Shown here: in pieces, positions 11,890-32,000 of the stretch | Position numbering within the stretch: position 1 is the first letter of the stretch | Layout: every line of letters starts with the position of its first letter | Source of the DNA: an uncultured Nitrospiraceae bacterium | Lineage (GTDB): Bacteria > Nitrospirota > Nitrospiria > Nitrospirales > Nitrospiraceae | Direction of reading: 5' to 3' | DNA length: 32,000 bases | Assembly: GCA_963801725.1 (NCBI GenBank) | Contig: CAWDFX010000002.1 | Coordinates: 1,507,231 to 1,539,230, forward strand | Made by a program: the position numbers and the translations under genes | Notes under the pieces: generated by a model | Told to the model about the DNA's origin: nothing | Databases searched by the model: none | Seen by the model: the letters and a program-made list of their open reading frames with translations, nothing else

Positions 11890-11962
11890 GAAAGGCGCTC
11901 CTTTTTTGAGAGGTATATGAGGGCTTCCTTCAAATGTACACTTCTATCATATTTCTGGTCGT

Positions 11963-12911: not shown

Positions 12912-13127
12912 GGTTGAACTCCTCTCTGAAATGGTTGAGCGAACCTCTCCAGCCAAATGTACAACTGGTCTTTTCTATGTGAGGGGTCTCACAGGCATTT
13001 CGTCTGTGTGTGAGGAAAAGAATAGCAGAGCCAAATTTTGCAATATGTATCGTAGTGTCCGGTTAAGAGTCAAGCACTTTGACCCAAAACCAGAAAAGTA
13101 GGCCAGCGGAATCTTGCCCACAGCCTA

Positions 13128-13575: not shown

Positions 13576-14375
13576 GTAACGATAAGGGCTAGAAATCATT
13601 CGATGATGAAGAATTCTTCACGATCCGTTCACGATCTGCTCATCTGAGGCTGTTACATCGTAGGCAAACGACAGGCCCCCGAATTTTATCTCGGGAATAT
13701 TGAGCAACAGGGTCTGAACATCGACTTGAACAAGCTTTGATGAACACGGGTCTGTACAGCTGGTTCCATTTTGCCAGCAACCAGACGAATGCGGCGAGTA
13801 ACGTTGACATGATCGGGGCGCTGCGAAATTACAGAGCGTCTTATTCACGATTCCAACCCAACCATGCGTACATGTTATGAATGTCGTACGGACCGAGTCG
13901 TCTCCAGGGCTACACTCCCTCCTAGCCTCAAGAATTTCCATTGTGTTATAAAAAGCGGACACGACATATGTTGTCTGCAGGGGGCAAAGGCTGGCATTGA
14001 CAGATTTTTCTGGGGCCTGTATAAGGGCGCCGATCAGATAGGGGAACAACGGCGTTTCCCATCAGCCTCAAGTCATAAATTGATGCGTGGACAATGGCGT
14101 CCTCCAGCCCAAGCGGGCTAGAGGATTTTTTTTGCTCGCATTCGAATCGGCTGAATCACAATGGCGCAGGTGAACTGAGCGATGGGAAAATCTGAGAATA
14201 GCCAGACGTGGGCGATTGGACGGGGAGGGGATTCAGATTGTTATACTGGCGTTGGTTCGACGATGTTGTTGTGGCGAGAGGCTTGCAGGGGGATGCAAGT
14301 AGACAAGTAGGCTGATCTCCGTCTTTCGGTATGTATGATAGAGGCAACCTCGGGAATTGTTTAAGGAGGTGTGAC

Positions 14376-15233
14376 GTGAAGAAGCTGATTGGAAGTATTG
14401 TCGTATTGACAATGGCGACGATTCTGAGTTCTCTGGCTTGGGCACAAGACGGGAAACCACCGGCCCCGCAAGTCAAAACGCGATCTGTGGCGCCTCCTCA
14501 TGACGCCCCCCACTGGAGCTACGAAGGCAAGGATGGCCCTCGATTTTGGGGTAAGCTCGACCCGGATTTTTCGCTTTGTAAAGACGGCCATAAACAGTCG
14601 CCTATCGATATCGGGAAAACCACTCAAGCATCACTTCAGAAACTCGGAGCAGACTTCAGTCCCGCGAAGCTGCAGATCGCGCATCACGAGCATATCGCCG
14701 ACGAGATCAACAATGGCCACACCATCCAGGTCAACTATTCGGAAGGCGATACCCTTACCATTGGAGAAGACAGCTTCGAGCTTATCCAATTCCACTTCCA
14801 TAGTCCGAGCGAGCACACTGTCAAGGGCAAGCATTACCCGATGGAGATGCATTTCGTGCACAAGTCTGCCTCAGGTGCCCTGGCGGTCGTCGGCGTATTC
14901 ATCGAGAAAGGGGCACACAATGTGGCCTTCGACCCTATCTGGTCGAACCTTCCAACGAAAAAGGGAGTCGAGTCACATTTTGAACATGTCCAGGTGAATG
15001 TTGATGATCTTTTGCCGCACAATACTGAGAGCTACCGTTATGATGGTTCTCTGACAACTCCCCCTTGTTCGGAGGGGGTGAGGTGGATCGTGATGAAGTC
15101 TCCTATCCAGCTCTCTGGGGAGCAAATCGGGAAGTTCACGGCGCTCGTCAAGGGGAATAATCGGCCTGTGCAGCCCTTACATCACCGTGTGACTGTGACC
15201 GATGCGGTTACAGAAGAAGTGATGGCGAGATGA
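14376..15233 (+). CDS. Alpha-class carbonic anhydrase, exported
   Basis: HWSYEGKDGP, QSPIDI, NNGHTIQV, QFHFHSPSEH and MEMHFVH (the three Zn His), LTTPPCSEGVRWIV. The likely start is GTG 14376 (VKKLIGSIVVLTMATILSSLAWA signal peptide) with AAGGAGG 6 nt upstream. Confidence 0.9.
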   Translation: MKKLIGSIVVLTMATILSSLAWAQDGKPPAPQVKTRSVAPPHDAPHWSYEGKDGPRFWGKLDPDFSLCKDGHKQSPIDIGKTTQASLQKLGADFSPAKLQIAHHEHIADEINNGHTIQVNYSEGDTLTIGEDSFELIQFHFHSPSEHTVKGKHYPMEMHFVHKSASGALAVVGVFIEKGAHNVAFDPIWSNLPTKKGVESHFEHVQVNVDDLLPHNTESYRYDGSLTTPPCSEGVRWIVMKSPIQLSGEQIGKFTALVKGNNRPVQPLHHRVTVTDAVTEEVMAR

Positions 15234-16254: not shown

Positions 16255-17520
16255 TTAGCTTCCTACGGCCCTCGTAAAGACTGGGATGATGTTACCAGCT
16301 ATACTGTTGATATGACGATTTCCGGCTTCGTCCCAAGCCATCACGAGCCCTCCGAAGCGCTGGTCAGGATCGTGGACCAGATCCATCAACCTCTGCACTT
16401 CCCAGAGCGAATCACGTGAGTCGAGCTTGACTTCTCTGCTTTCGCCTGGGTTGATGGGAGACTCATCCTCTATATGCAAGCCGTCTAGGGCCATGATCTC
16501 CGGTGGATAGGTCGGGTCCATATTGTTCGCCACCCCCACCTTGTTAAGGAACCTGATTCCTGCCGTCGTGAATTCTCCGATCCTAAGAGGCTGCTCTCCG
16601 CTGTTGGTGACCTGTAGGGTCATGCGAAGGGCGCGACCAGGAACGTCGTAATCTGCGGTGAGAACCTTGATCGTGAGGTCTGACTTCAAATGAGTCGCCT
16701 TGATCTTTGGCTCACCCGCTTGGAGCGGGATAGTATAAGGGTACTGAGAATCTGTCACGAAGAAACCAATTGCGATTAAGACAAAGCACACCCCTAACAT
16801 ACCAAAGGCCACTACACGGTCGACCGGATCGTTTAGGAGCGCATCTCCTCCCTCTTGCGCCAGCACGCGGGCGCGAATGAGGAACATCGGTCTGATTGAG
16901 AACCAGGCAATCCAGAGAAACCCGAGACTACCCCATAGGGCATGCCAGAAGAGCCCGGCCGCCAGGCCTGCGGTCTCCGTATCGATGGTTCCACCAACCA
17001 GCAACTTCACCGGGTTGGTAAAGTCCTTATAGTTGCCTGTGATATCCATCCAGCCCCCAGGTCCGGCGATAGGGCCGGCCCCATTGACTGCCAACATCGG
17101 GTGGATGTGGTGATGTCCAGGTAACCGGCCTCTCAGCTTGATCACATACTCGTAGTCCCCACCGAGCTCCATTGGGCCAGAGGTGACCATCGGAATTCCG
17201 TTCACTTTCGAGCTGAGACGTGTAAACACCGAACTTGGGCTGCCTACGTTTATGAACGTACGCTTGGGCGCAACAACGGCCCTTGGCCAGTCTTCGGATA
17301 TGTGGATCTTGCCAGACAGCATCGCTTCATCGTTGACGGCGGTCTTCTGCGGATTCCATCTTGTGTCATACCATTGAGCGGTACGCATCCGCAGGAACGG
17401 TTCCTGAGACCGCTCCCCGTGGGCGGCGGCGGGAGAGGCAAAGAACACCAGGGGGAGCCCCAGTGTCGCCATCCCGAGGGAGCCGATCACGCACAATTTA
17501 ATTATGTTTTTGGCGTTCAT
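16255..17520 (-). CDS. amoB: Ammonia monooxygenase subunit B (CuMMO PmoB/AmoB family)
   Basis: The signal peptide ends ...SPAAA|HGERSQEPFLRMRT, so the mature N-terminus is His. Contains GHHHIHPM (HxH copper-site region), two internal TM helices and a C-terminal cupredoxin domain. The start overlaps the amoA stop (ATGA at 17520..17517). Confidence 0.95.
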   Translation of the reverse strand: MNAKNIIKLCVIGSLGMATLGLPLVFFASPAAAHGERSQEPFLRMRTAQWYDTRWNPQKTAVNDEAMLSGKIHISEDWPRAVVAPKRTFINVGSPSSVFTRLSSKVNGIPMVTSGPMELGGDYEYVIKLRGRLPGHHHIHPMLAVNGAGPIAGPGGWMDITGNYKDFTNPVKLLVGGTIDTETAGLAAGLFWHALWGSLGFLWIAWFSIRPMFLIRARVLAQEGGDALLNDPVDRVVAFGMLGVCFVLIAIGFFVTDSQYPYTIPLQAGEPKIKATHLKSDLTIKVLTADYDVPGRALRMTLQVTNSGEQPLRIGEFTTAGIRFLNKVGVANNMDPTYPPEIMALDGLHIEDESPINPGESREVKLDSRDSLWEVQRLMDLVHDPDQRFGGLVMAWDEAGNRHINSIAGNIIPVFTRAVGS

Positions 17521-18425
17521 GATTTCCCTTCTGCTAATGTGGCTCCGGCCCCCATAGGTGCTCCTGCCAATTTAGGCGCAATCCCGTCCGGCGTACCATG
17601 CCTTTGTGCAAACTCATCGCTGCCGACAACCATGATATCGTTCTTCCGTGACATTGCGCCGCGTTTGCCCTTGACCCAAAAGAACGATTGACCAACGAAG
17701 TGGCCGATTTGCCACCAAATGGTGAAGACCAACATAGAAACGAAGGCCGAGAAAAACGCCGAGATCCAGACGGTGTGTCCACCGAACGTACGCAGCGATC
17801 CCACCTCAATGATTCGGATATACTCAGGTGTCCCAGTACGGACATAAGTGAATCCCATGTAATCGGCCAGCGACATGAGCTGACCATCCACAACCAACGG
17901 TTGGTGGCTGTATCCGAATAGAGCGTATTGTGTTGGATTAAACATCATTGCGAATGCCCACACCCCGAATATCGCGGTGAGCATCCAGCTCCGAGTCAGC
18001 AACAGGGTGCAATCAAGGATCAGCGCGCTGCTGACCATGGTGGCGGGCATGACGAAGTTCATCGGAAAGTTGGCCCACCAGTACCAAGCAAATACAATCG
18101 TGATCCACTTCCCGACGAGGAGCCCCGTGATGCTCAATGTTGCACCAAACGGTTGCCGGTAGAACGTCCAGAAGTAGTACATGATCGCCCCAGGATACAT
18201 GACCTCGACAATTGGTGTCACCGTCACCCAAAACTGCCGGTCCTTCCAATCGACCCAGAAATCCCAGTCTCCTGCAAGCAGGTCGAAGTGCATATGAAAG
18301 GTTGCGAATACCCCTAAATATGCAATCGGAATGAAATACACCGCATCTATCATTCTTGACAGCTTGACGCCTTCCGGCGGAAGCTTGCTGGCTTTGATAA
18401 TTTCTGCGGTTCTAAACAGTGCCAT
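17517..18425 (-). CDS. amoA: Ammonia monooxygenase subunit A, divergent lineage, with an Ala/Gly/Pro-rich C-terminal extension
   Basis: MALFRTAEIIKASKLPPEGV..., LLAGDWDFWVDWKDRQFW, YVRTGTPEYIRIIEVGSLRTFGGHT, SAFFSAFVSML. The likely start is ATG 18425, preceded by GAGGAGGGG; the ORF-track GTG 18440 lies inside that RBS. Confidence 0.95.
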   Translation of the reverse strand: MALFRTAEIIKASKLPPEGVKLSRMIDAVYFIPIAYLGVFATFHMHFDLLAGDWDFWVDWKDRQFWVTVTPIVEVMYPGAIMYYFWTFYRQPFGATLSITGLLVGKWITIVFAWYWWANFPMNFVMPATMVSSALILDCTLLLTRSWMLTAIFGVWAFAMMFNPTQYALFGYSHQPLVVDGQLMSLADYMGFTYVRTGTPEYIRIIEVGSLRTFGGHTVWISAFFSAFVSMLVFTIWWQIGHFVGQSFFWVKGKRGAMSRKNDIMVVGSDEFAQRHGTPDGIAPKLAGAPMGAGATLAEGKS

Positions 18426-18488
18426 TTGTCCCCTCCTCACTCGTTCTGAACATCAGTCTCCTCCCCATAGTTCAACTAGCCTCCCGAC

Positions 18489-19289
18489 TTAGTACGGGAT
18501 CACATGCAAACAGTCCTTGCTCTCGTTGTTCCAGACCACATCACACAGGTTGGACATGCGCGCCACGATCTGCGCCGCCACGCCCCCCGTGCCGCCGAAC
18601 AACCCGCACCAGCCCAACGTCACAAAGCCCCAGTGCAACGGCGCGGCAAAGAGCTCATCGACGAACCAGAACGCATGCCCCCACTCATTGAGGCCCACGT
18701 TCGGCAGAATCATCATCGGCCCCACGATCGCTCCCACCAACGGGAACGAGACCGCCTTGCTGAACTGCGGCAGCCGGGTCATGGCATACAGGTAACTCGC
18801 GACGCCACAGGTGATGTACAACGGGAAGGTGAAGTAGAACGCGATAATATGGCTGGCGGTGAAGCTCGTATCGCGGATGATCACTTGATGCCACGACGCA
18901 TCCTGCTCCAGCGTATAACTGCCGGCCCAGTACACGCCGAACACATAAATCGCGAGCCACATCATCCAGTAAAAGTACCGCTTGAGTTCCGTCTTGGGAT
19001 CGACGTTGGCGATGTTCCGATCCCGCGTGCTCCAAATCCATCCCAGGGTCGCGGCCGAGAAGATGATGTTGGAAATCACGTTAAAGCGCCACAGGCCCAT
19101 CCAGACGTTTTCGAACTCCGGCGTCATCGAGTCCAACCCGTGGGAGTACCCAAAGACGCGCTGAAACACGACCTCGGCGCCCACCGCCGCCAACATTGCA
19201 AACCAGCCGATCTTGAGAGGCCTGGAATCGTACCAGAGCGACATGTCGTACCCCCGGTCGCTACCCCCCCATGTTGTTGAACTCGCCAT
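18489..19289 (-). CDS. amoC: Ammonia monooxygenase subunit C
   Basis: [57 protein letters not shown] (the conserved AmoC/PmoC metal-site region). ATG 19289 has GGAGG 7 nt upstream. Confidence 0.95.
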
Positions 19290-19477: not shown

Positions 19478-20490
19478 GGACTATGCACTTAACTCCAGTT
19501 TCGTCACCTAAATTAAGAGGTGCCCGCAACCAGTCTGGAGTAGGGGGCAGGCTCAATTGATACAGCTTGCGCGACAAGTCCGTAGAACAGTTTCCAACGG
19601 TATCTGGACGTTCGACGGTTGAATCTAAACGTGAATTCCTCGAGATAGGTATCCAGCTGCTCGCGGGACAGTGCACCTTGATGGGTACCCATCAACCAGC
19701 GTCTCAACAAGGAGGCGACCCGGTGTACGCGGGGTAGCAAGGCAGACGACTGTTTTGCCGTTGGCATTGATCAATCGCGGTCGGTGCTTGAAACCCTCCT
19801 GTTTCAACCCTGCATAGCCTTTCCATCCATCCGTGATGACTATGGAGCCTGGTTCAACCACGTGTTTTACGAAGGTGACGAGCTGACTCGGAGAGGCGGC
19901 GGGAATCCGACGCAGACGGATGCGCCCAATCCCTTTCCCATCAATCTGCGCGGCGATCGCCACCAGGGCCTTGCTCTCTAGGTGCCAGCGGCCTCCTCCC
20001 GCCTCGACGTTCCCCATATGCATTTCGTCCACTTCAACTTCGCCTCCCAGTCTGTCCCAATCCGGCAGTACCATTGCTCGCCGCAATTTTTGTAGCCACA
20101 ACCAGGCAGTTCTATAACTGCCAAAGCCCAGCAGGCGCTGTAGTCCTAAGGCGCTGAGCTGGTGTTTCTGTCCGGTCATCCACCACATGGCTCGGAACCA
20201 GTCCTGCAAAGGAAGGCGGGTTCGATGGAAGATCGTTCCCGCTGTGACCGAGGCTTGGTATCCGCATCGGCGGCACATCAAGAGGCATCGTGTGGTTGTC
20301 CAACTGCCGTTGGTCGTGCACTGTGGGCAACAGAACCCAGTCGGCCAACGCAACCGAGCTAGGTAGGCACGGCACGCACCTTCTGTGGCGAAGCGCTGCT
20401 CGAACTCGGCGAGGGTCCGCATTATATAGTCCTCCACGGTGTGACCCCGCTAGGCCTGGGGTATACTGGAGTCAAGTGCATAGTCCGTTG
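19478..20490 (-). mobile_element. IS1595-family insertion sequence, full length with terminal inverted repeats
   Basis: IR-L 19478-19499 ggactatgcacttaactccagt; IR-R 20465-20486 actggagtcaagtgcatagtcc, whose reverse complement is ggactatgcacttgactccagt (21/22). The heptamer gtgcaaa occurs at 19471-19477, directly abutting IR-L, and at 20492-20498, 5 nt beyond IR-R; this may be a target duplication. Confidence 0.85.
19513..20422 (-). pseudogene. IS1595-family (ISXO2-like DDE) transposase, frameshifted near 19745-19765
   Basis: N-terminal Zn-ribbon (CPQC...CRRCGY), then the DDE region (EVEVDEMHMG..., SIVITDGWKGY). The C-terminal part (LPRVHRVASLLRRWLMGTHQGALSREQLDTYLEEFTFRFNRR) lies in a different frame (ORF 19513..19767). 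The switch is around the A4 run in ggcaaaaca. ATG 20422 has GGAGG 8 nt upstream. Confidence 0.85.
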
Positions 20491-20880: not shown

Positions 20881-22902
20881 TCAGTGCACGTGATCGTCTG
20901 GAGGCGGACGAATTTCATCTTCCCTGTTAAGTTGACCGATCTCCCGCATCAATGCGCCGATGTCCGTCCATCCCGCTCCATCCACCTCAGGGATCCAGCG
21001 CGCCCGCAGATAGCCATAGCGGTCTATCAGGAACTCCATGTGTTTGGGCGCTGTTCCCTCACCGGCCAGATCAGGATTGCTGAGGGTTCTACGGAACAAT
21101 GCGTAGCTTTTCGCAATTTCCGGCCCACCCTGCGTTGCCACGGGGAAAGGCATGTTTGCCAAGACTGACTCCAGATCCTGCTGTTTGCTGTCATTCACTG
21201 GGACCGCCAGCACCACCGTATTGCTGCCACTTAGTGTGGCGTATGCCAGCCGCAACTGATCGAGCCTCGTGCGTGACTCTGGCCACGAAAACAGCACCAA
21301 CAGCACTATTTTGTGTTGGCGGAAATCCTTCAACGTGCCGCTTGCGCCGTCGTGCGCGGAATAGGAGAAGTTTTGCGGGGCCATATAGGGCTGATTGGGG
21401 GCGACAAAGGGGTTGATGAGGCGCGCCTGATAGCCGCGGGACGTGGCATGGAGAAAGTTCACGACATCCCAGCGATCCTCTTCTGTAAGTTTGTCAGCAA
21501 ATGCCGGCATACCTGTATCGGGAATACCATAAGTCAGCCAGTGGAAAAAATCGCCTGCGGTGTGCTTGAGAGTGTGCGGCTCCGTGAGCAGATCCACCGG
21601 TGGCTTCTTGAAGGTCTTGGCCAGAACGCCATTGCCCTTGGCTTGAGGGCCGTGGCAAGGCACGCAGTTCGCGGCGAAGTGGGTCGCACCGTTGGCAACA
21701 GAAATGGCATCGAACGGGACCGGCGTCTTACGGTAGGTTTCAGGATAGGCCTGAATAGCAATGGGAGGCAGCGCCACGGCCAGCGCACAGGCAGCCAGTG
21801 CGATCGGGATGGTTATGCGCCATTTTGTTTTCCAGCGTTTGGTTCGACCTAGTATGATCGCCCCACCTGCCAGCACAAGCAGTGCGATTCCGATTCCCCC
21901 TCCAATCATCGCTCCCGGCTCGCCCCAGGTGGCGTCGATGGAGAAGCGGAATGGATAGGGCCAGTCTTCAATGACGGCATGCTTTGCCGGCACGGCGTTG
22001 GCCAGCACTGTTGCCACCAACACCAGCGTCAACGCGATCGCGAATTCGACGGATACCCATTTTCGAAGGCCTCGGCCACCGGCTGCAGCTACATTAGGGT
22101 TCTGATCAAGCGACGGCACCCAGAGGAGGCGAGCGCATGCGCCGATCACAAGAATCGGTGCGAGCAACGAGACCTTTGTATTCAGTAGCCAGCCGTAGCT
22201 CGTCGCAACTAATGCAGCGTAGCTCGTGTCCACCATCTGATCCGCAACGAGGATGCCGGTGGCAACGACAGCGACCATCACCGGCAACGCTATTGCCGAG
22301 AAACGCTTCAGGGTCTGGATATCGGACCGATCCACTTCATCGTGTGAGCCCTTCCTACTAGTGGCGAATATGACCGTGAGAATGGCTGGCAACCCTCCGA
22401 ACCAGACACTTGCGAGAATGATGTGCAGCGTGTAGGGCAGGACCGATGCCACGGATAGCTCTCCGGCTGCGGAATGGCTTGCGAGCGATCCCACTGCCAG
22501 CGTGAGCGCGGCGAAGGTCGCGCACAACACATACCGCCAATGCGCCGAAGGGGAGAATCGAATGTAGAGGGCTACGCCGAGGACGATAAGCGCAAGGGCT
22601 GCGCGCGCCATCCAGATGAGTCCTATGCGGGTTTTCTGTAAGAATTCTAGCCAGGCCCCCGGGTGCCAAGCATTTTCGGCTAACCCCGTGGCCTGCGCCG
22701 TAGTCGTGGCCAGCAAGCCCACCAACCCTAGCAAAAGCGCGACTGAAAGCCACGGTAACGCCTGTCCCAGGCGGGCTGGCCATGGGGCGTCGGATGCGGT
22801 TCTGGCGCGCACGGCAATCGCGAGAAAGACGCAGCCGCCGATCAGGATCATGTTGGACGCAAGCTGCAGCCAGCGGAACAGCGCGCCGATGACCTCGATC
22901 AT
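20881..22902 (-). CDS. copD: CopD-family copper transport membrane protein fused to a mono-heme cytochrome c domain and a Cys-less thioredoxin/peroxiredoxin-fold domain
   Basis: About 380 aa of polytopic CopD-like membrane domain. Next comes CVPCH (codons 413-417, about 21652-21666) with a downstream GMPAF Met ligand region. The final ~170 aa have a redoxin-like fold (KIVLLVLFSWPESR...VLAVPVND...MEFLIDRYGYLRARW) lacking catalytic Cys. ATGA overlap with copC. Confidence 0.85.
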   Translation of the reverse strand: MIEVIGALFRWLQLASNMILIGGCVFLAIAVRARTASDAPWPARLGQALPWLSVALLLGLVGLLATTTAQATGLAENAWHPGAWLEFLQKTRIGLIWMARAALALIVLGVALYIRFSPSAHWRYVLCATFAALTLAVGSLASHSAAGELSVASVLPYTLHIILASVWFGGLPAILTVIFATSRKGSHDEVDRSDIQTLKRFSAIALPVMVAVVATGILVADQMVDTSYAALVATSYGWLLNTKVSLLAPILVIGACARLLWVPSLDQNPNVAAAGGRGLRKWVSVEFAIALTLVLVATVLANAVPAKHAVIEDWPYPFRFSIDATWGEPGAMIGGGIGIALLVLAGGAIILGRTKRWKTKWRITIPIALAACALAVALPPIAIQAYPETYRKTPVPFDAISVANGATHFAANCVPCHGPQAKGNGVLAKTFKKPPVDLLTEPHTLKHTAGDFFHWLTYGIPDTGMPAFADKLTEEDRWDVVNFLHATSRGYQARLINPFVAPNQPYMAPQNFSYSAHDGASGTLKDFRQHKIVLLVLFSWPESRTRLDQLRLAYATLSGSNTVVLAVPVNDSKQQDLESVLANMPFPVATQGGPEIAKSYALFRRTLSNPDLAGEGTAPKHMEFLIDRYGYLRARWIPEVDGAGWTDIGALMREIGQLNREDEIRPPPDDHVH

Positions 22903-23303
22903 TTCTTTTGCACTTTATCCTTTACCGTGAAGTCGAAGGAAGACTCCACCACGTGACCGTCTACCGACAGCACCCGAAATTTCACGGAATACTTCCCAGG
23001 CGCCAATTCCGGTAATGGCAGGATGATGGATTTTCGATCATCCGGAGCAAGTTGAGGATGGATCTCGGTTACAGGATGCTTTTCGGCGTCGAGCACGACA
23101 AGGGACGCGTAGTCGCCTTCGATTTCTTCGTTGAACCAGAGTCGTACCTGCGCCGGCGCTTTGGCGAGGAGAGCCCGGCGCGGCGGCTCTGCCTTGACCA
23201 GCATTGAATGAGCTAACGCCGGAGCGGCATATACGCACATAGCCATGGCCATCACTGCGCCTACCATGACGCGCTTGGGCGCATGAACGACCCATGATCC
23301 CAT
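22899..23303 (-). CDS. copC: CopC-family periplasmic copper-binding protein
   Basis: The signal peptide ends ...APALA|HSMLVKAEP, so the mature N-terminus is His. A CopC beta-sandwich pattern follows (VRLWFNEEIE..., YSVKFRVLSVDGHVVESSFDFTV). GAGGAGGG lies 6 nt upstream of ATG 23303. Confidence 0.9.
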   Translation of the reverse strand: MGSWVVHAPKRVMVGAVMAMAMCVYAAPALAHSMLVKAEPPRRALLAKAPAQVRLWFNEEIEGDYASLVVLDAEKHPVTEIHPQLAPDDRKSIILPLPELAPGKYSVKFRVLSVDGHVVESSFDFTVKDKVQKK

Positions 23304-23406: not shown

Positions 23407-23994
23407 CTACGAAACGGTACTAACCGAGGGTTTGCGGCGACTGCGTAGGAAAAAGAAGATCGCCGCTCCACCGGCAATCGCTGCGAGCGGGACTATGACC
23501 ATGATGTAGTGCATGAAGTGCGAAACCACTCCCGATTCTCCTACCGAGATCGGGAATCGCGCTACATGTTCCTGCGTGCCCCCAACGGTGACTACACCGA
23601 TGAATTTGCCGGGCTGGTTGAAGTTATATTCGAAATTGATGAAACCTCCGGGGTAGACTTTGGGCGGCAGGTGAACGATCGTGATGGCCTGAAGGTCCTG
23701 CTCCGAACCCGTATCTTTGACGACCCGGACCTCGACGGGCAACGAACGGAGTTCCCCTTCGATATAATCGAGCACCAACACCGTACGGCCGGTCGACGGA
23801 ACATCCCCGCAGAGCTCTCTTTGGGCTGAGGTGTCAGGCTGATATTCGGTAAGGTGCATGCCGTAGGGTCCAAGCTTGAGTATGCAGAAGTTCTTGTCCA
23901 GCTCATGAAAGTGTTGGGCCTCTGCGGAGAGTGGAACTCCGATCGCCAGCATCAAAAAGCACACAACCGCGGGTTTCAGAAATCGCAAAGACAT
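23407..23994 (-). CDS. AmoD/AmoE (PmoD)-like exported protein with a C-terminal TM anchor, paralog 1
   Basis: Signal peptide, then a ~140-aa periplasmic domain (FCILKLGPYGMHLTEYQP...ELCGDVPSTGRTVLVLDY...), then a single C-terminal TM helix and a basic tail. The likely start is ATG 23994 (GAGGA 8 nt upstream), not the overlapping ORF-track start at 24168. The family assignment rests on architecture, motif and synteny with copCD/amoCAB. Confidence 0.65.
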   Translation of the reverse strand: MSLRFLKPAVVCFLMLAIGVPLSAEAQHFHELDKNFCILKLGPYGMHLTEYQPDTSAQRELCGDVPSTGRTVLVLDYIEGELRSLPVEVRVVKDTGSEQDLQAITIVHLPPKVYPGGFINFEYNFNQPGKFIGVVTVGGTQEHVARFPISVGESGVVSHFMHYIMVIVPLAAIAGGAAIFFFLRSRRKPSVSTVS

Positions 23995-24082
23995 CGTCAG
24001 TATCCTCATCGTTAGGCGTCTCAATTTCCTCGTTGAACCAGAGTCACACTGCGCCGGCGTGTTGGATCGGCTAGCCGGATGC

Positions 24083-24667
24083 CTATGAAACGGTACTGCC
24101 AGAAGTTTTGCCACGCCCGCGCAGAGCAAAGAAGAGCACCCCAATAACAGCGACCCCTGCGAATGCAATCAAGAAGTATGAGGGTGGCAACGGAATTTTC
24201 GTCTCCCCTACCGAGAATGGAAATCGTGATACATGTATTTGCTTGTCGCCTACGGTGACCAGGCCGACGAATTTACCGGGCTGGTCGAAATTGTATTCGA
24301 AATTGACCGTGCCGTTGGGATAGACCTTGGGCGGCAGGTGAAGGACTGTGATGGCCTGAAGGTCTTGCTCCGAGCCCGTATCCTTGATGACCCGAACCTC
24401 GGTGGGCAACGGGCGAAGAGCATCTTCCATGTAGTCGAGTACCACGACCGTGCGACCAGTTGCCGGAATATCCTCGCAGAATTCCTTGTTGCGCGTGTTG
24501 TCAGGCTGATAGCCGGTGAAGTGCATGTTGTACGGGCCGATCGTGAGTCGGCACATGTCCTCTGCCAGTGCCAGTCCTCCGTGAGCCTGGGCCTGTGTGG
24601 AGAATGTAACTCCGATCGCCAGCATCAAGAAGCACGCGCTAGCAGATTTCAGCAATTGCGCAGCCAT
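24083..24667 (-). CDS. AmoD/AmoE (PmoD)-like exported protein with a C-terminal TM anchor, paralog 2
   Basis: MAAQLLKSASACFLMLAIGVTFSTQAQA|HGG..., MCRLTIGPYNMHFTGYQP...EFCEDIPATGRTVVVLDY. About 60% identical by eye to paralog 1, with long near-identical DNA stretches. ATG 24667 is preceded by GAGGGAGGG. Confidence 0.65.
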   Translation of the reverse strand: MAAQLLKSASACFLMLAIGVTFSTQAQAHGGLALAEDMCRLTIGPYNMHFTGYQPDNTRNKEFCEDIPATGRTVVVLDYMEDALRPLPTEVRVIKDTGSEQDLQAITVLHLPPKVYPNGTVNFEYNFDQPGKFVGLVTVGDKQIHVSRFPFSVGETKIPLPPSYFLIAFAGVAVIGVLFFALRGRGKTSGSTVS

Positions 24668-24720
24668 TGTCAGGACCCTCCCTCTCGAATGTTGAACCAT
24701 GTGCTCACAGGCCGGAACAC

Positions 24721-25317
24721 CTAGTTTCCCGTCCGGCGGACTGCCCACCAATTCCGCACCCACTTCGATCGTACGAGCTTGTACACGAGCCACGCCGCGA
24801 GCAGCACGCCGAACAATGGGATGCCCACGGAGCGCAGCAGCTTCTGATAATCGGTCATGTGTACCCGCAAGAGATACTGCGGGCGCCGCATCAGATTCTG
24901 CTTCTCTGCCGCAATGGTGACCGTATACAGACCCTCGTCCAGCCGGACTTCTCCCCGGAGCACTCCGTCCGGGTGGGTGCTCGGACGAATATCGGCTACA
25001 ATCTGATCTTCTGCCTCATTGCCCCCGTTTCCCTTCACGACTCGCATCCCGACCGGCTCGTTGCGTAGCGACGGGTCCACGAGGTCTACGACGAGAAAGG
25101 TGTCGCCTTCTTTGGGAATGTCTGTGCAGTATTGATCTTTCAACTCGTATTGCGGCTGATAGGCGCTGAAGTGCACCACGCGTTCACCGACTCTGCGCAA
25201 ACACGGATCGTCTTCTCCACTGGTTGCCCCATGTGCGGCAGCTAGGCTGGGCAGGTATAGTGCAGCACCAAGAAGCACGAGCACGATTGCGCCTGTCCGT
25301 GTCACCTGTCTCTTCAT
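24721..25317 (-). CDS. AmoD/AmoE (PmoD)-like exported protein with a C-terminal TM anchor, paralog 3 (most divergent)
   Basis: MKRQVTRTGAIVLVLLGAALYLPSLAAA|HGA..., PCLRRVGERVVHFSAYQP...QYCTDIPKEGDTFLVVDL, with a C-terminal TM (IPLFGVLLAAWLVYKLV). AGGAGAG lies 8 nt upstream of ATG 25317. Confidence 0.6.
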   Translation of the reverse strand: MKRQVTRTGAIVLVLLGAALYLPSLAAAHGATSGEDDPCLRRVGERVVHFSAYQPQYELKDQYCTDIPKEGDTFLVVDLVDPSLRNEPVGMRVVKGNGGNEAEDQIVADIRPSTHPDGVLRGEVRLDEGLYTVTIAAEKQNLMRRPQYLLRVHMTDYQKLLRSVGIPLFGVLLAAWLVYKLVRSKWVRNWWAVRRTGN

Positions 25318-26248
25318 AGGTCGAACTCTCCTGTGTGGGACTCTGCGCGGAGGCGCAGCTCATTCCGCCCACCGTGACGGCGTTCCATGCGGCTCAGCGA
25401 TCCCAGTGCATAGTTGCGCGACTGGCCACATATCGTATCAAGTGGTATTACCATGATGCCATTAAAGCAGGGCAAGATTCTAGCCCCCCTCGCGAGGTAT
25501 GCAAAAACCTCGAAATTGTTTTTCTGTTGGGTTCGACCGGAGCACCGGCTGTCCGATTTGAACCATCTTCGATTGAAGGCATAAATAAGGGCAGGCACTG
25601 CGCACCTATTTCTCGAAGCTTTCCCGCGTGGATATCCGGAGCCAAGAACCGGGCATTGTTTTCCCATCCGTAAGGTTGGTAGGGGAATGCCGTGATAGAA
25701 AACAGTGGTGGAGTTTAGATGATACACAAACCACACGATTCCTCGATAATGGGTACATGTTACATGCATCTACGTACCAAGAGAAGGGCTGCTAGGGGCA
25801 CGCCTTTCCGCCGTTGCATTCGCGACCAACGGCTTTCCTCTTGCTTGTGTGGCAGGATTTGGTTGCTGGTGGGGGATCTGGTCTTGTTCCTCTTGGATGT
25901 GATGGCCCAGCGGAGAGTACAACGAATGAATTTCTGGTGCCGAGAGTTCGATCAGTGGGTTTGAGCAACAGGCTTGGAGGTACGGTCATATCGTACCCGC
26001 GCAATCCATCTTTGACTTGCCGATGTCTGATGGGCGACAATTGCAAATCCATTGTGCGTTCCCTTTTCATGAGGCCGCAAATTGCCGCATGGTGACGTCG
26101 ACTTTGCGGAGGGAATACCGATTCAGATACGGGTGTCTTGTATGAGACGCCAGACGGTATCGAGAAGGCGTTCGCGAACAGCAAGACCTTTAAAAGCTCA
26201 ACGCTGCGGCAATTCTTATTCTTCAGTTCCCGTGGGATTTCTCGAAAT

Positions 26249-26869
26249 ATGTTCCAAATCGTCGCACTGAGCGGCAGCCGGGGAGAGCGGTTGCTGTTTT
26301 CCGATATCAGCGTGACGGTCACGCCAGGAACTCTGTTGGCTGTGGTCGGTGAGAACGGCAGCGGGAAAACCAGCTTCCTTCGCATGCTGTGCGGGTTGTT
26401 GTCGCCTGATAACGGCACGATTCTTTGGCAGGGGAAAGACATTCGCCAGCTTAAGGAACTCTATCGTGCCCAGTTTACTTACGTGGGGCATCTCAACGGA
26501 ATCAAGGATGAGCTGACTCCAGTTGAAAACCTTACGGTCTCTGCCTGCCTGGCGGGCGATGAAAGTGCGAGTGGAGTTGTGCAGAAGGCGTTGGAGGCAG
26601 TCGGTCTTGGGCGACCGATCCATCGTCTGCCGACGCGCGTACTCTCGCAAGGACAAAAGCGCCGCGTGGCTCTGGCGCGTCTCTGGCTTTCCACTCGTCC
26701 GTTATGGCTCTTGGATGAACCATTTGCATCACTCGATGTTACAGCCACAAGTTACTTGACCCGGCACCTTCAGTCCCACCTGAGTCATGGTGGCATGGTG
26801 GTCGTCGCCACGCACCAGGAGATCGATCTTCCATCTGATTGCATTCAGCACCTGAGGCTGACTCGATGA
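26249..26869 (+). CDS. ccmA: Heme exporter ATP-binding protein CcmA
   Basis: Walker A GENGSGKT, ABC signature LSQGQKRR, Walker B LWLLDEP. The likely start is ATG 26249 (MFQIVALSG...). The stop overlaps the ccmB start (ATGA). Confidence 0.9.
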   Translation: MFQIVALSGSRGERLLFSDISVTVTPGTLLAVVGENGSGKTSFLRMLCGLLSPDNGTILWQGKDIRQLKELYRAQFTYVGHLNGIKDELTPVENLTVSACLAGDESASGVVQKALEAVGLGRPIHRLPTRVLSQGQKRRVALARLWLSTRPLWLLDEPFASLDVTATSYLTRHLQSHLSHGGMVVVATHQEIDLPSDCIQHLRLTR

Positions 26870-27549
26870 GTCAGCCCAGTCTGAGTGAGGCATTACACGG
26901 CGTTGTCCGACGGGACCTCCTGTTGGCTATGCGGCACCGCTCGGATGTGGCGATGTCGGTGTTCTTTGTCGTCATCGTCGCGAGCCTCTTTCCGTTGGGG
27001 GTTGGGCCGGAGCCGGCGGTTCTGAGGATGATCGCCTCCGGTGTGCTCTGGGTTACGGCCTTGCTTGCGTGTCTGTTGTCGTTGGGGCGCTTGTTCACTG
27101 CGGATTATCTTGATGGTGTGTTAGAACAGACGCTCTTGATCCCTCAACCGCTGGCTGTCTTGGTCGTTGGCAAGGTGTTCTCGCACTGGGTCATCTCTGG
27201 CTTGCCAGTGGTTCTGCTCTCGCCTCTCCTCGGCCTGCAATTCGGCTTGAGTGGAGAGTCGCTCTGGGTGTTGACGTTATCGCTCTTGCTTGGTACGCCG
27301 ACGTTGAGTATGATTGGAGCCATTGGAGCTGCATTAACTCTTGGATTGCGTGGGAGTGGCTTGCTGGTTGCCCTCCTGGTGCTTCCACTTTTTATTCCGG
27401 TGCTGATCTTTGGGGCCGGCGCCGTTACGAATAGTTTGGCCGGAATCGGAAGCGAAGCGAATCTGTCGCTGCTTGGAGCCTGCTTCCTGTTCTCGCTCAC
27501 ATTTGCGCCATGGGCCACGGCTGTTGCATTGCGCATTGCATTGGAATAA
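26866..27549 (+). CDS. ccmB: Heme exporter membrane protein CcmB
   Basis: Polytopic membrane protein of about 227 aa with typical CcmB sequence (FFVVIVASLFPLGVGPEP..., DYLDGVLEQTLL). Sits in the ccmA-B-C order. Confidence 0.9.
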   Translation: MSQPSLSEALHGVVRRDLLLAMRHRSDVAMSVFFVVIVASLFPLGVGPEPAVLRMIASGVLWVTALLACLLSLGRLFTADYLDGVLEQTLLIPQPLAVLVVGKVFSHWVISGLPVVLLSPLLGLQFGLSGESLWVLTLSLLLGTPTLSMIGAIGAALTLGLRGSGLLVALLVLPLFIPVLIFGAGAVTNSLAGIGSEANLSLLGACFLFSLTFAPWATAVALRIALE

Positions 27550-27558
27550 GACATCGTT

Positions 27559-28476
27559 ATGAGCGCCACAGGCATTAACTGGTTTAAATATTCATCACCA
27601 CAGGCCTTTCACCCGTTAGCCGGGCGGATGATTCCGTGGTTTGCTGCCGCTGCTGCGGGATTGATCGTGGTCGGGCTGTACGTGGGGTTTTTCGTCGCGC
27701 CGACCGATGCGACGCAAGGCGATGCCTACCGCATTATCTTTGTTCATGTACCGGCTGCCTGGATGTCCATGTTTCTCTACGTCATCATGGCGATCTGGGC
27801 AGGTCTTGGATTAGGGCTCAATGCGCGTCCTTCTTTTATGATGGCGCAGGCCATCGCTCCCACCGGAGCGATGTTTACGTTCCTCGCCCTGTTCACCGGA
27901 TCGATGTGGGGCAAACCGACCTGGGGGGCATGGTGGGTGTGGGATGCCCGGCTGACGTCGGAACTGATTTTGTTGTTTCAATACATCGGGATCATCTTGT
28001 TGCGCTCGTCGATCGACGACCTGCGTCGCGCCGATCGTGCCAGTGCCGTCTTGGCGCTCGTGGGGGTGGTCAATGTTCCAATCATCTATTTTTCTGTGAA
28101 GTGGTGGAACACGCTGCATCAAGGGGCTTCTGTCAGCATCACCGCGGCGCCGACAATGGCGGGCACCATGGTGACGGCGATGTTGGTGATGATGGTCGGC
28201 TTCTGGATGTACAGCATCGCGGTGACGCTAGCCCGCGTGCGCTGTGTGATTGTTGAGCGAGAGCGACAGCCGTCGTGGGGCAAGTCTGGCCTCGTTACCG
28301 GATGTCGCGGAGGCGCGCTGATGCAGTGGGGGAGTCTGGCGGAGTTTTTCGCGATGGGTGGGTACGGCCTCTATGTGTGGGCCTCGTTCGGCGCCACGGC
28401 TCTGTGCATGAGTGGGGAGGTCCTCGCGGTATGGCGGCGGTCTGCAGCAGCGGCTGAGAGCCACGATGAGTTGTAG
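27559..28476 (+). CDS. ccmC: Heme lyase/exporter subunit CcmC, with the CcmD sequence in-frame at its C-terminus as sequenced
   Basis: Trp-rich motif WGKPTWGAWWVWDARLTSE plus conserved His residues. The ORF is about 50 aa longer than a usual CcmC because the CcmD-like sequence follows with no stop. Confidence 0.9.
   Translation: MSATGINWFKYSSPQAFHPLAGRMIPWFAAAAAGLIVVGLYVGFFVAPTDATQGDAYRIIFVHVPAAWMSMFLYVIMAIWAGLGLGLNARPSFMMAQAIAPTGAMFTFLALFTGSMWGKPTWGAWWVWDARLTSELILLFQYIGIILLRSSIDDLRRADRASAVLALVGVVNVPIIYFSVKWWNTLHQGASVSITAAPTMAGTMVTAMLVMMVGFWMYSIAVTLARVRCVIVERERQPSWGKSGLVTGCRGGALMQWGSLAEFFAMGGYGLYVWASFGATALCMSGEVLAVWRRSAAAAESHDEL
28321..28476 (+). CDS. ccmD: CcmD (small heme-export membrane protein), probably a separate gene
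   Basis: MQWGSLAEFFAMGGYGLYVWASFGATALCMSGEVLAVWRR is a typical CcmD. In the neighbouring frame a TGA at 28319-28321 overlaps this ATG (cTGATGc), the usual ccmC/ccmD junction. A 1-nt slip at the G4 run 28277-28280 would restore it. Confidence 0.6.
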   Translation: MQWGSLAEFFAMGGYGLYVWASFGATALCMSGEVLAVWRRSAAAAESHDEL

Positions 28477-28491
28477 GAGGAAGCGAAGACG

Positions 28492-28959
28492 ATGAAGCCT
28501 CGACAGAAACGGTTTGTCCTTATCGGCCTAGGATTGGTCGCATTGGCGGTGGCGGCAGCGTTAGTGCTGAATGCATTTCAAAGCAACCTGGTGTTCTTTT
28601 ATACGCCGACGCAAGCCGCCAATGGGGATGTGCCCCAAGGGCGAAGCTTCCGTATCGGCGGAATGGTGGAAGCCGGCAGTCTCACGCGCGAAGGCGATGG
28701 GTTAACCGTACATTTTGTCGTGACCGATATGGCAAAGCGGGTGCCCGTGACGTTCAAAGGAATTCTACCGGACCTCTTCAAGGAGGGCAAAGGCGTTGTG
28801 GCTCAGGGGCAACTCGGAGCCAATGGAGCCTTTCTCGCGAGTGAAGTGCTGGCGAAGCACGATGAAAACTATATGCCACCGGAAGCCGCGGATGCGCTCG
28901 CCAAAGCCAAGACGGTAGGGGCGCAGAGCAGCGGCACCCTGGTCGTCAATCCACGCTAG
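28492..28959 (+). CDS. ccmE: Heme chaperone CcmE
   Basis: N-terminal membrane anchor, an OB-fold region ([11 protein letters not shown]...) and the heme-binding [12 protein letters not shown] motif. AGGAGG lies upstream. Confidence 0.95.
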
Positions 28960-28967
28960 GAGCCGAC

Positions 28968-30961
28968 ATGATTCCAGAAATTGGTCATTATGCCTTAATT
29001 CTCGCGCTCTGCGTGGCGGTCGTACAGGGGAGTCCTGCCTATCTATGGCGCGGCTGTGGGAAATTCCTCGCTGATGGCCGTTGCAAAGCCGGCGGCGCGC
29101 GCGCAATTCCTGCTGGTTCTACTGGCCTTTTGCTGCCTAGGGTATGCCTTTGCTGAGAAAGACTTCTCCGTGCTGTATGTTGCAGCCACGTCGAACTCTC
29201 AGCTCCCATTGCATTATCGTCTTGCCGCTATCTGGGGTGCGCACGAGGGTTCGTTACTGCTCTGGATGTTCATCCTCAGCATCTGGATGGTCGCCGTCTC
29301 TTTCTTCTCCACCCATCTGCCGGAGGCGATGCGCGCGCGCATTTTGGGTGTGATGGGTCTCGTCAGCGTGGGATTTCTTCTGTTCATGTTGACGGTCTCG
29401 AATCCGTTCGAGCGGTTGATTCCTGCCGCGCTTGATGGGCGCGATCTGAATCCGCTGTTGCAAGACCCCGGTATGGTGATCCACCCGCCGATGCTCTATA
29501 TGGGGTACGTGGGATTCTCCGTCGCGTTTTCCTTTGCGATCGCCGCGCTCTTGGGAGGCACGTTGGATGCGGCCTGGGCGCGTTGGTCACGTCCGTGGAC
29601 CACTGTTGCCTGGTGTTTTATGACCGTGGGGGTTGCGATGGGGAGCGGGTGGGCCTATTACGAGCTGGGTGGGGTGGTTGGTGGTTCTGGGACCCGGTCG
29701 AAAACGCCTCCTTCATGCCATGGCTGGCCGGCACCGCGTTGATGCACTCGCTGGCGGTGACCGATAAACGGGGCGGCTTCAAAGCCTGGAGCGTGTTGCT
29801 CGCCATTATGGCCTTCTCGCTCAGTCTGCTCGGAACCTTCTTAGTCCGTTCCGGCGTGTTGACTTCAGTGCATGCGTTTGCCACCGACCCGAAGCGTGGC
29901 TTATTCATTCTCGTGTTCCTGGCCGTGGTGATCGGCGGCTCGTTGGTCTTGTACGCCTGGCGGGCGCCTCGCGTCGGCCTGGGCGGGGGCTTTGCTATGA
30001 TCTCGCGCGAAGGGATGTTGCTGGCGAACAATGTGTTGTTGGTGGCGGCATTGGGCTCGGTGCTCCTGGGCACGCTGTATCCCTTGTTCTTGGACGCGCT
30101 GGATCTTGGAAAAATCTCGGTCGGCCCGCCGTACTTCGACACGGTCTTTCTCCCCCTGATGACCCCCGCAATCTTTTTGATGGGGATCGGGCCGCTGGCC
30201 CAATGGAAGCAGGCAAGCCTGCCGGCCTTGGCCATCCGCCTGCGCTGGGCATTCGGCGTCAGCCTGGTGACCGCCGTGGCGGTGCCGTGGCTCATGGGCC
30301 AATGGACGCCGCTGATCAGTCTGGGGCTCCTGCTGGCCTTCTGGATTCTGGCGACGATCGTGGTGGATCTGCGGGAGCGGCTGCTCCAGGCCGAAGGGGT
30401 GGCAGCATTGGGGGCCGCGTGGCCATGCTGCCTCGTGCCTATTGGGGCATGGTCTTGGCCCACTGCGGTGTGGCCCTATTCATTGTCGGTGTGACCATGG
30501 TGAAGGGCTTCGAAGTGGAGCAAGATGTACGGATGAACGTCGGTGAGACGGCCACGCTCGGCGGCTACACGTTCCGCTTTGACGGGACAGAACAGGTCAA
30601 TGGCCCGAACTATGTTGCGGCGCGGGGGACGTTTCATGTGAGCCAGGATGGCCGTGAGGTGACGGTGATGTATCCCGAAAAGCGCCGCTACTTCGTGCAG
30701 AACCAGACGATGACCGAAGCGGCAATTTCACCGGGGTTGCTGCGCGATCTGTACGTGTCGTTGGGCGAGCCGCTTGAGGGCGGAGCCTGGAGCGTGCGGC
30801 TCTATCACAAACCCTTCATCGATTGGATCTGGGGGGGCTGTTTGGTCATGGCTTCGGGCGGCGTCCTGGCCGTCAGCGATCGGCGCTATCGGCTGGCGTG
30901 GCGGCGGAAAGAGGCTGCGGTGCCGGCCACGACCCAGATGGCGCGCCCGACCGTCTCATGA
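28968..30961 (+). CDS. ccmF: Cytochrome c heme lyase CcmF, spread over three frame switches (four ORF pieces)
   Basis: Joining the pieces gives a colinear CcmF: MIPEIGHYALILALCVAVVQG | VLPIYGAAVGNSSLMAV...WGAHEGSLLLW...LNPLLQDPGMVIHPPMLYMGYVG...WAYYELG | WGGWWFWDPVENASFMPWL...SVHAF... | ...LPRAYWGMVLAHCGVA...YHKPFIDWIWGG. The switches are at G-runs: about 29027-29031, 29667-29669 and 30396-30414. Confidence 0.85.
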
Positions 30962-31572
30962 ACCGGTTTCTCATCCCGTTCGGGCTCTTCATTGTCGTGG
31001 TCGGTTTTCTGGCCGTCGGGCTCACGCTCAACCCGCGTGAATTGCCGTCTCCGTTGGTCGGGAAGGCGGCGCCTGAGTTTTCACTGCCGCAGCTCCATGA
31101 TCCAGGGAAAGTCATTTCGTCGAATGACCTGAAGGGCCAGGTCTGGTTGCTCAACTTCTGGGCGTCGTGGTGCGGGGGCTGTAAAGACGAGCATCCGGTG
31201 CTCGTCCATCTTGCACAATCAGGGGAGGTGCCCATCTATGGCATGGATTATAAGGATCAACGGAACGAGGCCCTGGGGTGGTTGAAGGAATGGGGCAATC
31301 CCTATCAGATCGTTGCCGTGGATGAGCCAGGGCGAGTCGGTATTAATTATGGTGTCTACGGTGTGCCGGAAACCTATGTGATCGATAAGCAGGGCGTCAT
31401 CCGCTACAAGCAAATCGGCCCGCTACGCGAGGATATCTTGGAAACAAAGATTTTTCCCCTGGTCAGGGAGCTTGCAGAACCAATGAGATGGCTCTGGGTG
31501 CTCATGCTGCTCTTTCCCAAGTCTTGCGACGGCGTACGAGGCCCCGCCGCTCGCTGCGAACCCGCAGGCTGA
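30958..31572 (+). CDS. ccmG: Thiol:disulfide oxidoreductase CcmG/DsbE (the ORF as sequenced reads through into the ccmH signal peptide)
   Basis: TM anchor MNRFLIPFGLFIVVVGFLAV, thioredoxin motif WASWCGGC, and GVYGVPETYVIDKQG. ATGA overlap with the ccmF stop. The CcmG-like sequence ends at ...LVRELAEP (about 31482). The remaining ~30 codons are the ccmH N-terminus plus off-frame sequence. Confidence 0.85.
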   Translation: MNRFLIPFGLFIVVVGFLAVGLTLNPRELPSPLVGKAAPEFSLPQLHDPGKVISSNDLKGQVWLLNFWASWCGGCKDEHPVLVHLAQSGEVPIYGMDYKDQRNEALGWLKEWGNPYQIVAVDEPGRVGINYGVYGVPETYVIDKQGVIRYKQIGPLREDILETKIFPLVRELAEPMRWLWVLMLLFPKSCDGVRGPAARCEPAG

Positions 31573-31871
31573 GGCGCGATTGAAAGCGCTCGCCGTCGAG
31601 CTGCGCTGCCTGGTCTGTCAGAATCAGACGTTGGCCGATTCGAACGCGCCGTTGGCCGAAGATTTGCGCCGAGAAGTGCGGGAGATGATCGCCAAAGATA
31701 TGAGCGACCGAGGAGATCATCGACTTTCTCGTCTCGCGATATGGGGACTTTGTGTTATACCGACCGCCCTGGAAGCTCACGACCACGTTGCTCTGGGTGG
31801 GGCCGTTCCTCTTGCTGGGAGCTGGCGCAACAGGATTGGTGTTTGCGCTGCGCGGAGACAGAAGAAGATGA
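31483..31871 (+). CDS. ccmH: Cytochrome c maturation protein CcmH, with two frame switches
   Basis: Signal peptide MRWLWVLMLLFP (frame 1). Then ATAYEAPPLAANPQAEARLKALAVELRCLVCQNQTLADSNAPLAEDLRREVREMIAKDMSD (frame 2, LRCxxCQ motif). Then EEIIDFLVSRYGDFVLYRPPWKLTTTLLWVGPFLLLGAGATGLVFALRGDRRR* (frame 3, stop 31869-31871). The switches are near 31513-31526 and 31708-31710. Confidence 0.8.
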
Positions 31872-31941
31872 CCGATGTGACGTTGTCGGAAGCCGAGCAC
31901 AATCGTGTGACGCAACTACTTTCCGAAGGAGCTCGTCGTCC

Positions 31942-32000
31942 TTGACCATCATATTCTGGTGTATCGTCATCGGGCATGACTCTTCTCATCCTCGGTCTTC
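31942..32000 (+). CDS. Possible start of ccmI (N-terminal TM helix), truncated by the window end
   Basis: TTG 31942 gives (M)TIIFWCIVIG, and ATG 31976 in another frame gives MTLLILGL. Joined at the GGG run 31972-31974, they form a typical CcmI N-terminal helix. Too short to be sure. Confidence 0.3.
   Translation, partial: MTIIFWCIVIGHDSSHPRS

Follow-up and report, generated by a model that had tools for sequence, protein, structure and literature searches.

Three consecutive minus-strand genes in a 32,000-nucleotide stretch of an uncultured Nitrospiraceae genome (contig CAWDFX010000002.1; the whole stretch is called the window here) encode proteins of the PmoD/AmoD/AmoE family. Judged by their sequences, these genes are amoE, amoD (amoD1) and amoD2 of comammox (complete ammonia-oxidizing) Nitrospira, and the source organism apparently belongs to clade B. 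Our reading, to which we assign a probability of roughly 0.9, is that the three products are anchored periplasmic PmoD-type copper proteins, which act together with CopC and CopD in copper handling for the ammonia monooxygenase (AMO). Homology, fold, orthology, synteny, purifying selection and conservation of the Cys and His residues are established here. Earlier work on comammox and on PmoD has already described the three genes, their neighbours and the variants of their motifs, and public metagenome-assembled genomes (MAGs) contain near-identical loci.

Gene structure and protein architecture

The trio consists of amoE (24721..25317, 198 aa), amoD1 (24083..24667, 194 aa) and amoD2 (23407..24009, 200 aa), all of which are intact and located on the minus strand. 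A tandem arrangement of three open reading frames (ORFs) had been described in an earlier note made from the DNA letters, and the ORF list agrees with it. The assignments draw on this list and on a match to the PmoD structure 6CPD for all three genes, complemented by a structure model and a tree for amoE, the identity to NE0941 for amoD1 and the identity to clade-A AmoD2 for amoD2. The mechanically called ORF of amoD1 (24083-24793) extends to a GTG at 24793; alignment with paralogues and orthologues identifies the ATG at 24667 as the start. For amoD2, the mechanical ORF spans 23407-24168, and two ATGs come into question as its start, that at 24009 and, more probably, that at 23994, which is aligned to the amoD1 start, has a better placed AGGA and yields a product of 195 aa.

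Hydropathy windows reveal the same architecture for all three proteins: an N-terminal hydrophobic signal-like segment ending in A-x-A, a hydrophilic domain of about 130 residues and a single C-terminal transmembrane helix, which bears out the signal peptide, periplasmic domain and C-terminal anchor that had been proposed. In AmoE, the signal peptide is predicted to comprise residues 1-28 and the transmembrane helix residues ~160-185. Its predicted mature N-terminus is His29-Gly30, followed by Cys39, Val47-Val48-His49 and Cys64. AmoD1 has the same predicted mature N-terminus (His29-Gly30), Cys39, Met48-His49 and Cys64, and AmoD2 has Gln32-His33-Phe-His35 at its predicted mature N-terminus, Cys42, Met51-His52 and Cys67. 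The second Cys thus lies 25 residues beyond the first in each protein, and an AxA-type cleavage context precedes H29 in AmoE and AmoD1 and Q32 in AmoD2. The claim that two of the mature N-termini begin with His-Gly is in line with the predicted sites AAA|HG and AQA|HG, the third being AEA|QHFH, and the core peptides quoted at that time, FCILKLGPYGMHLTEYQP, MCRLTIGPYNMHFTGYQP and PCLRRVGERVVHFSAYQP, are exact.

Family membership and fold

Comparison of the three proteins with the PDB by phmmer identified 6CPD, the soluble domain of PmoD, as a match for AmoD1 (E 3.1e-24), AmoD2 (2.5e-20) and AmoE (8.9e-6). The matches of AmoD1 and AmoD2 span the whole domain, whereas the match of AmoE covers its N-terminal 58 residues only. 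A further phmmer match of AmoD1, to the designed repeat protein 8pjs, was discarded, as it is confined to the transmembrane helix and a low-complexity tail. Neither Pfam nor NCBIfam contains a model for the PmoD/AmoD/AmoE family, and scanning the three proteins against both accordingly returned no match. The profile search that had been suggested as a check thus places all three proteins with PmoD through the PDB.

The mature periplasmic domain of AmoE, the weak case by sequence, was modelled with AlphaFold2 from an alignment of 116 sequences. The model has a mean predicted local distance difference test score (pLDDT) of 85.9, with residues 1-6 below 50, and its top match in a Foldseek search of the PDB is 6cpd_A (E 3.4e-9, TM-scores of 0.67/0.69, 126 columns); generic beta-sandwiches rank well behind. 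Structure prediction of the monomer, which had also been recommended, therefore gives the same family as the sequence matches, and together with the orthology to AmoE, AmoD and AmoD2 the three 6CPD matches uphold the original family assignment. The expectation that the Cys and His positions correspond to those of PmoD holds as well: C39, H49 and C64 (AmoE numbering) are invariant in the alignment of the three proteins with PmoD. Among the 116 family sequences, both Cys residues (C1 and C2) and an Asp (Asp78 in AmoE) are invariant, and the predicted N-terminal His (H1), the Gly that follows it (G2) and the His of the motif (H2) are at least 90% conserved. A phmmer search of 1.84 billion cluster representatives with AmoE as query returned 477 clusters at E<=1e-3; the PmoD-like family is therefore small. 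The genomic context agrees with the assignment, as amoCAB (16255-19289) and copCD (20881-23303) are found on the same strand as the trio.

Orthology and conservation of the locus

Orthology was assessed against reference sequences that Fisher et al. 2018 provide in their Supplementary Data 3, and a neighbour-joining tree with bootstrap was calculated. AmoE of the window shares 47.5% identity with NE0942 (AmoE/orf4 of N. europaea) over 183 aa, the C-terminal helix region included (E 1e-53), and 49% with clade-A comammox AmoE, but only 31% over 91 aa with NE0941. AmoD1 is 63% identical to NE0941 (AmoD/orf5 of N. europaea), and AmoD2 is 54% identical to clade-A comammox AmoD2, the product of the third gene. 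In the tree, the AmoE group and the D clade each have a bootstrap value of 100, comammox AmoD1 and AmoD2 are each monophyletic (99-100) and AmoD2 of the window clusters with comammox AmoD2; the grouping of AmoD1 with N. europaea AmoD reaches only 53.

The closest relatives of AmoE in a collection of 5.8 billion proteins number about 2000; those with a name are called 'hypothetical protein', and some come from Nitrospiraceae. Together with the lack of a Pfam or NCBIfam model, such records mean that a conserved AMO-associated module is missed by automated annotation. Searching one genome per prokaryotic species with AmoD1 yielded 56 loci with up to 98% protein identity. All loci that carry a taxon name belong to Nitrospira, Nitrospiraceae or Nitrospirota MAGs, and these include 'Rifle_cladeB' and the CG24A, CG24C and CG24E bins. 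The latter are reported to be clade B (Palomo et al.), and most of the roughly 50 related MAG loci seem to be of clade B as well. The order ccmA (on the opposite strand), amoE, amoD1, amoD2, copC, copD, a transposase-like gene and amoC recurs in about 50 loci; one locus (L052) holds amoE and amoD1 only. The motif YNMHFTGYQP is invariant in 49 AmoD1 orthologues. Ratios of nonsynonymous to synonymous substitution rates (dN/dS) against the orthologues are 0.19 for amoE, 0.11 for amoD1 and 0.17 for amoD2, so all three genes are maintained by purifying selection.

Additional lone amoD1-like genes, whose products are 85% identical to AmoD1 of the window, are found in some clade-B MAGs away from the main cluster, at three loci (L020, L021 and L035). 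These MAGs also carry a full amoE-amoD1-amoD2 locus (L028 and L007). At L021, the lone gene is followed by copC and copD, and a lone amoC lies ~3.5 kb further.

Copper-motif classes

The Cys-to-His spacing is C-x9-H in all three proteins; Met directly precedes His in AmoD1 and AmoD2, and two Val residues take this place in AmoE. The alignment thus agrees with the earlier statement that the spacing equals that of CX7MXH, with the Met shifted by one position in two copies and replaced by Val in the third. The same variants have already been published as motif classes: Fisher et al. 2018 (PMC6189053) sorted 860 PmoD homologues by motif, and the comammox trios are already listed in their tables. 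The class Cx7MxHxnC (23.6%) contains the in-operon PmoD of alpha-methanotrophs and AmoE of ammonia-oxidizing bacteria (AOB) and is the sole class that forms a dimeric CuA centre (PMC6189053). AmoD of AOB belongs to the class Cx8MHxnC (13.4%); members of the class Cx9HxnC (22.2%) are often encoded near copC and bind copper, but do not form CuA, and the remaining classes are Cx8MxnC and CxnC (PMC6189053). AmoD1 and AmoD2 of the window are ordinary AmoD-type Cx8MH proteins. By lineage the third protein is an AmoE, but with Val in place of the Met of Cx7MxH it is assigned to the Cx9H class. The complete Cys-x7-Met-x-His ligand set is therefore found in none of the three, which would make mononuclear copper binding, rather than CuA-type electron transfer, the most likely mode.

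A conserved N-terminal histidine

Of the 112 full-length family representatives, 110 have a His no more than 16 residues upstream of the first Cys; the distance is exactly 10 residues in 82 representatives, and Gly follows the His in about 89. The residue before this His is Ala in 94/110 sequences, and Ala or Val occupies position -3 in 94/110, a pattern that corresponds to a canonical signal-peptidase site. In the 116-sequence alignment, the preceding Ala is as well conserved as H1 and G2 (at least 90%), a level like that of the known ligand His. Cleavage after the A-x-A site is predicted to expose an N-terminal His in four proteins encoded in the window, namely AmoB (AAA|HGE), CopC (ALA|HSM), AmoE (AAA|HGA) and AmoD1 (AQA|HGG). 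The AmoD2 N-terminus reads Q-H-(F/T)-H-E-L in 41 of 44 orthologues and is similar in clade-A AmoD2 (QHGHEL). In the AmoB and CopC families, the N-terminal His binds copper together with the free amine.

In most PmoD/AmoD/AmoE proteins, the free N-terminus might be part of the physiological copper site, much like the N-terminal histidine brace of AmoB/PmoB, CopC and lytic polysaccharide monooxygenases, a speculative proposal based on residue conservation that we consider unlikely. An 'H1' column is present in the supplementary tables of Fisher et al. and is not discussed in the main text; in that study, the constructs were extended by Ser-Met at the N-terminus, and H1 is Glu in the CuA-forming PmoD (PMC6189053). 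Published spectroscopy is therefore blind to an N-terminal site. A literature search combining 'PmoD' and 'histidine brace' found no paper. If the proposal is true, the members of the trio differ in a primary copper site that has never been examined. The near-universal predicted His-Gly N-terminus provides a cheap, testable and under-discussed lead on the function of the family.

Proposed role and alternative explanations

According to the proposed mechanism, each product would be exported via a cleavable signal peptide and held by one C-terminal helix at the periplasmic face of the inner membrane, where its PmoD-type cupredoxin-like domain would be exposed. As published work on PmoD suggests, the domains may bind copper through an N-terminal Cys/His cluster, and together with CopC and CopD they would handle the copper of AMO, be it by acquisition, delivery or assembly of the site. 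The three paralogues would have non-redundant roles, which were fixed by an ancient duplication. A role in copper handling is consistent with the phenotype of a pmoD deletion in Methylosinus trichosporium, in which loss of the in-operon gene leads to a copper-dependent growth defect (Fisher et al., PMC6189053).

An alternative function is that of CuA-type electron carriers to AMO, as has been proposed for in-operon PmoD. The trio shares the fold and the Cys-to-His spacing with CuA-forming PmoD, and a full Cx7MxH does occur in a minority of AmoE proteins: Met is found at the respective position in 5 of 52 AmoE orthologues from related loci and in 4 of the 120 closest homologues of the window AmoE, and clade-A comammox and N. 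europaea AmoE carry N-M-V-H. However, CuA formation is confined to the Cx7MxH class and abolished by the exchange M49A (Fisher et al., PMC6189053), all three window proteins lack this motif, and Val or Leu takes the place of the Met in 113 of the 120 closest AmoE homologues, so this position is not under strict selection. Electron transfer via CuA is thus distinctly unlikely for the trio, and the lack of a full CuA ligand set in three in-operon homologues of clade B argues against it as a general role of the family. The proteins could also be structural, stoichiometric AMO subunits, whose C-terminal helices pack on AmoA/AmoC. Each of them has one transmembrane helix, and a preprint on the cryo-electron microscopy (cryo-EM) structure of N. 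inopinata AMO describes two unassigned auxiliary transmembrane densities; its authors, however, name nitrite oxidoreductase (NXR) as an alternative source of these densities. Furthermore, the extra helix and the extra soluble subunit in AMO structures of AOB were assigned to unrelated small proteins, which confusingly bear the same names, and modelling of PmoD into a helix density of the particulate methane monooxygenase (pMMO) gave no strong evidence of association. A structural role is therefore doubtful, but less so than a role in CuA-type electron transfer.

In the earlier note, amoD1 and amoD2 were regarded as the result of recent duplication or gene conversion, owing to near-identical DNA at 23673-23745 and 24338-24410. 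At the quoted coordinates, these intervals are misaligned by 2 nt and share 11 of 73 bases; at the corrected offset of 667 nt, 62 of 73 bases match (85%). A central stretch of 60-100 nt is indeed 85-90% identical, with a best 60-nt window of 90% and a longest exact run of 17 nt, and the proportion of synonymous differences (pS) is as low as 0.21 in the first ~26 codons. Over all aligned codons, however, the two genes share 71% nucleotide identity with a pS of 0.46 and a proportion of nonsynonymous differences (pN) of 0.24, so the comparison of substitution rates, which had been suggested as a check, is at odds with a recent copy. Even in the most similar part, which encodes VRV(I/V)KDTGSEQDLQAIT..HLPPKVYP, pS is still ~0.35. 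Across 43 loci, amoD1 and amoD2 are as similar in nucleotide sequence when taken from one genome as when taken from different genomes, in each of the regions tested: identities are 0.724 versus 0.721 for the core, 0.794 versus 0.783 for the central stretch and 0.66 versus 0.67 for the signal peptide. Since AmoD1 and AmoD2 also form separate clades and AmoD2 is present in clade A, the duplication is old, the similar stretch is the product of constraint rather than exchange, and recent duplication or homogenization by gene conversion is refuted.

Some points weigh against a role of the trio in AMO copper handling as outlined above. PmoD-family proteins are not part of the cryo-EM structures published for AOB AMO. 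The available text of Fisher et al. (PMC6189053) describes no spectra for the Cx8MH (AmoD) class, so that 'no CuA' is an extrapolation for AmoD1 and AmoD2. The case for co-transcription with copCD or amoCAB comes from gene spacing alone, and a strong, near-consensus sigma70-like site (TTGACA-16-TATATT) is located at 20527-20500, just upstream of the transposase-like gene that separates copD from amoC. We nevertheless favour copper handling by comammox AmoE, AmoD1 and AmoD2 together with CopCD.

Genomic surroundings

Downstream of amoD2 and on the same strand follow copC (22899..23303; Pfam CopC, E 1e-21) and copD (20881..22902), which overlap by 4 nt. In the 673-aa copD product, CopD is joined to two further domains, a cytochrome c and a thioredoxin-like AhpC/TSA domain (Pfam CopD, Cytochrom_C and AhpC-TSA), and this triple fusion is kept at full length in related loci. 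The next genes on the minus strand are a frameshifted transposase-like gene of the IS1595 family (19625..20437), recognized by domain scans and comparison with related loci, amoC (18489-19289; Pfam AmoC, 2.6e-105), amoA (17517-18440; Pfam AMO, 8.6e-92) and amoB (16255-17520; Pfam Monooxygenase_B, 1.2e-144). Gaps of 53-103 bp are found inside the block, and the transposase-like gene is flanked by 443 and 335 bp; amoE-amoD1-amoD2-copC-copD looks like one operon. Divergent from amoE, the plus strand carries ccmA, ccmB, ccmC(D), ccmE, ccmF, a thioredoxin-like gene and ccmH (26138..31945; domain scans). The spacer between amoE and ccmA (25318-26137) measures ~0.8-0.9 kb and contains no convincing gene; its length in related loci is between ~430 bp and ~1.5 kb, with 6.4 kb in one of them (L039). 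A 151-aa ORF upstream of amoE (25314-25769) was taken as non-coding, as it has no family match, shows 32-79% conservation where detectable and is absent from most loci. Rfam and tRNA scans of the whole window were empty.

Homologues of the transposase-like gene (74-97% amino acid identity) occupy the same position between copD and amoC in 36 of the 56 related loci; 33 of them are intact (ORFs of 302-317 aa), two lie at a contig end and one (L051) is disrupted. In the window, a frameshift near codon 233 leaves an ORF of 270 aa, compared with ~306 aa in the orthologues. The gene looks long retained and possibly domesticated rather than freshly inserted. Other genes of the window are interrupted as well: a gene for a NirK-like copper nitrite reductase (~11960-12960, minus strand) is divided over two frames at about 12.5 kb, and ccmF (29056-30961, plus strand) is broken over three overlapping ORFs. 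At least four frameshifts occur within these 32 kb, and one of them affects ccmF, which is required for c-type cytochrome maturation; this suggests indel errors of the assembly rather than real pseudogenes. The genes amoE, amoD1 and amoD2 are free of these frameshifts. The nirK-like gene adjoins a gene for a bacterial-like (truncated) globin (11443-11889, minus strand), and a gene for a eukaryotic-type (alpha) carbonic anhydrase (14331-15233, plus strand) is located on the strand opposite to amoB, ~1 kb past the 3' end of the latter.

Comparison with known systems

The protein of the PDB entry 6CPD, PmoD Met49242_1452 of Methylocystis sp. Rockwell, has the same architecture, cupredoxin-like fold, two Cys residues and C-x9-H spacing as the window proteins, with 28-38% identity to them over the regions aligned by blastp. 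Unlike them, it possesses Cx7MxH, a dimeric CuA and Glu at H1. The similarity to N. europaea is closer: AmoD1 and NE0941 share the near-identical sequence QAHGGL(A/S)LAEDMC(R/K)LTIGPY(N/T)MHFTGYQP, and the mature N-terminus A|HG is common to AmoE, AmoD1, NE0942 and NE0941. However, NE0942 is of the Cx7MxH type (NMVH), whereas AmoE of the window reads RVVH. The gene order also differs, as beta-AOB have one amoD after amoCAB (amoCABED), whereas two amoD genes are present here and the block is located upstream of amoCAB.

Among comammox Nitrospira, the amoE, amoD and amoD2 genes ('amoEDD2') have been described (Palomo et al., bioRxiv 10.1101/138586; Pinto et al. 2015, PMC4863621; PMC12903955); a literature search for 'amoD2' itself gave only unrelated matches among the papers listed. 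In clade A, two bacterioferritin genes are reported before amoE, whereas none precede amoE in the window. As in N. europaea, clade-A AmoE has Met where Val is found here, and clade-A AmoD2 has lost the Met-His, with Ile-Leu (YKILF) and YLP in the place of the Met-His and YQP that AmoD2 of the window retains. Pinto et al. (PMC4863621) described two amoD genes and amoE, followed by copC, copD and then amoC. The window matches this comammox amoEDD2 arrangement: its three PmoD-family genes stand in tandem, copC, copD and amoC come after them, and ccm genes are found in the region.

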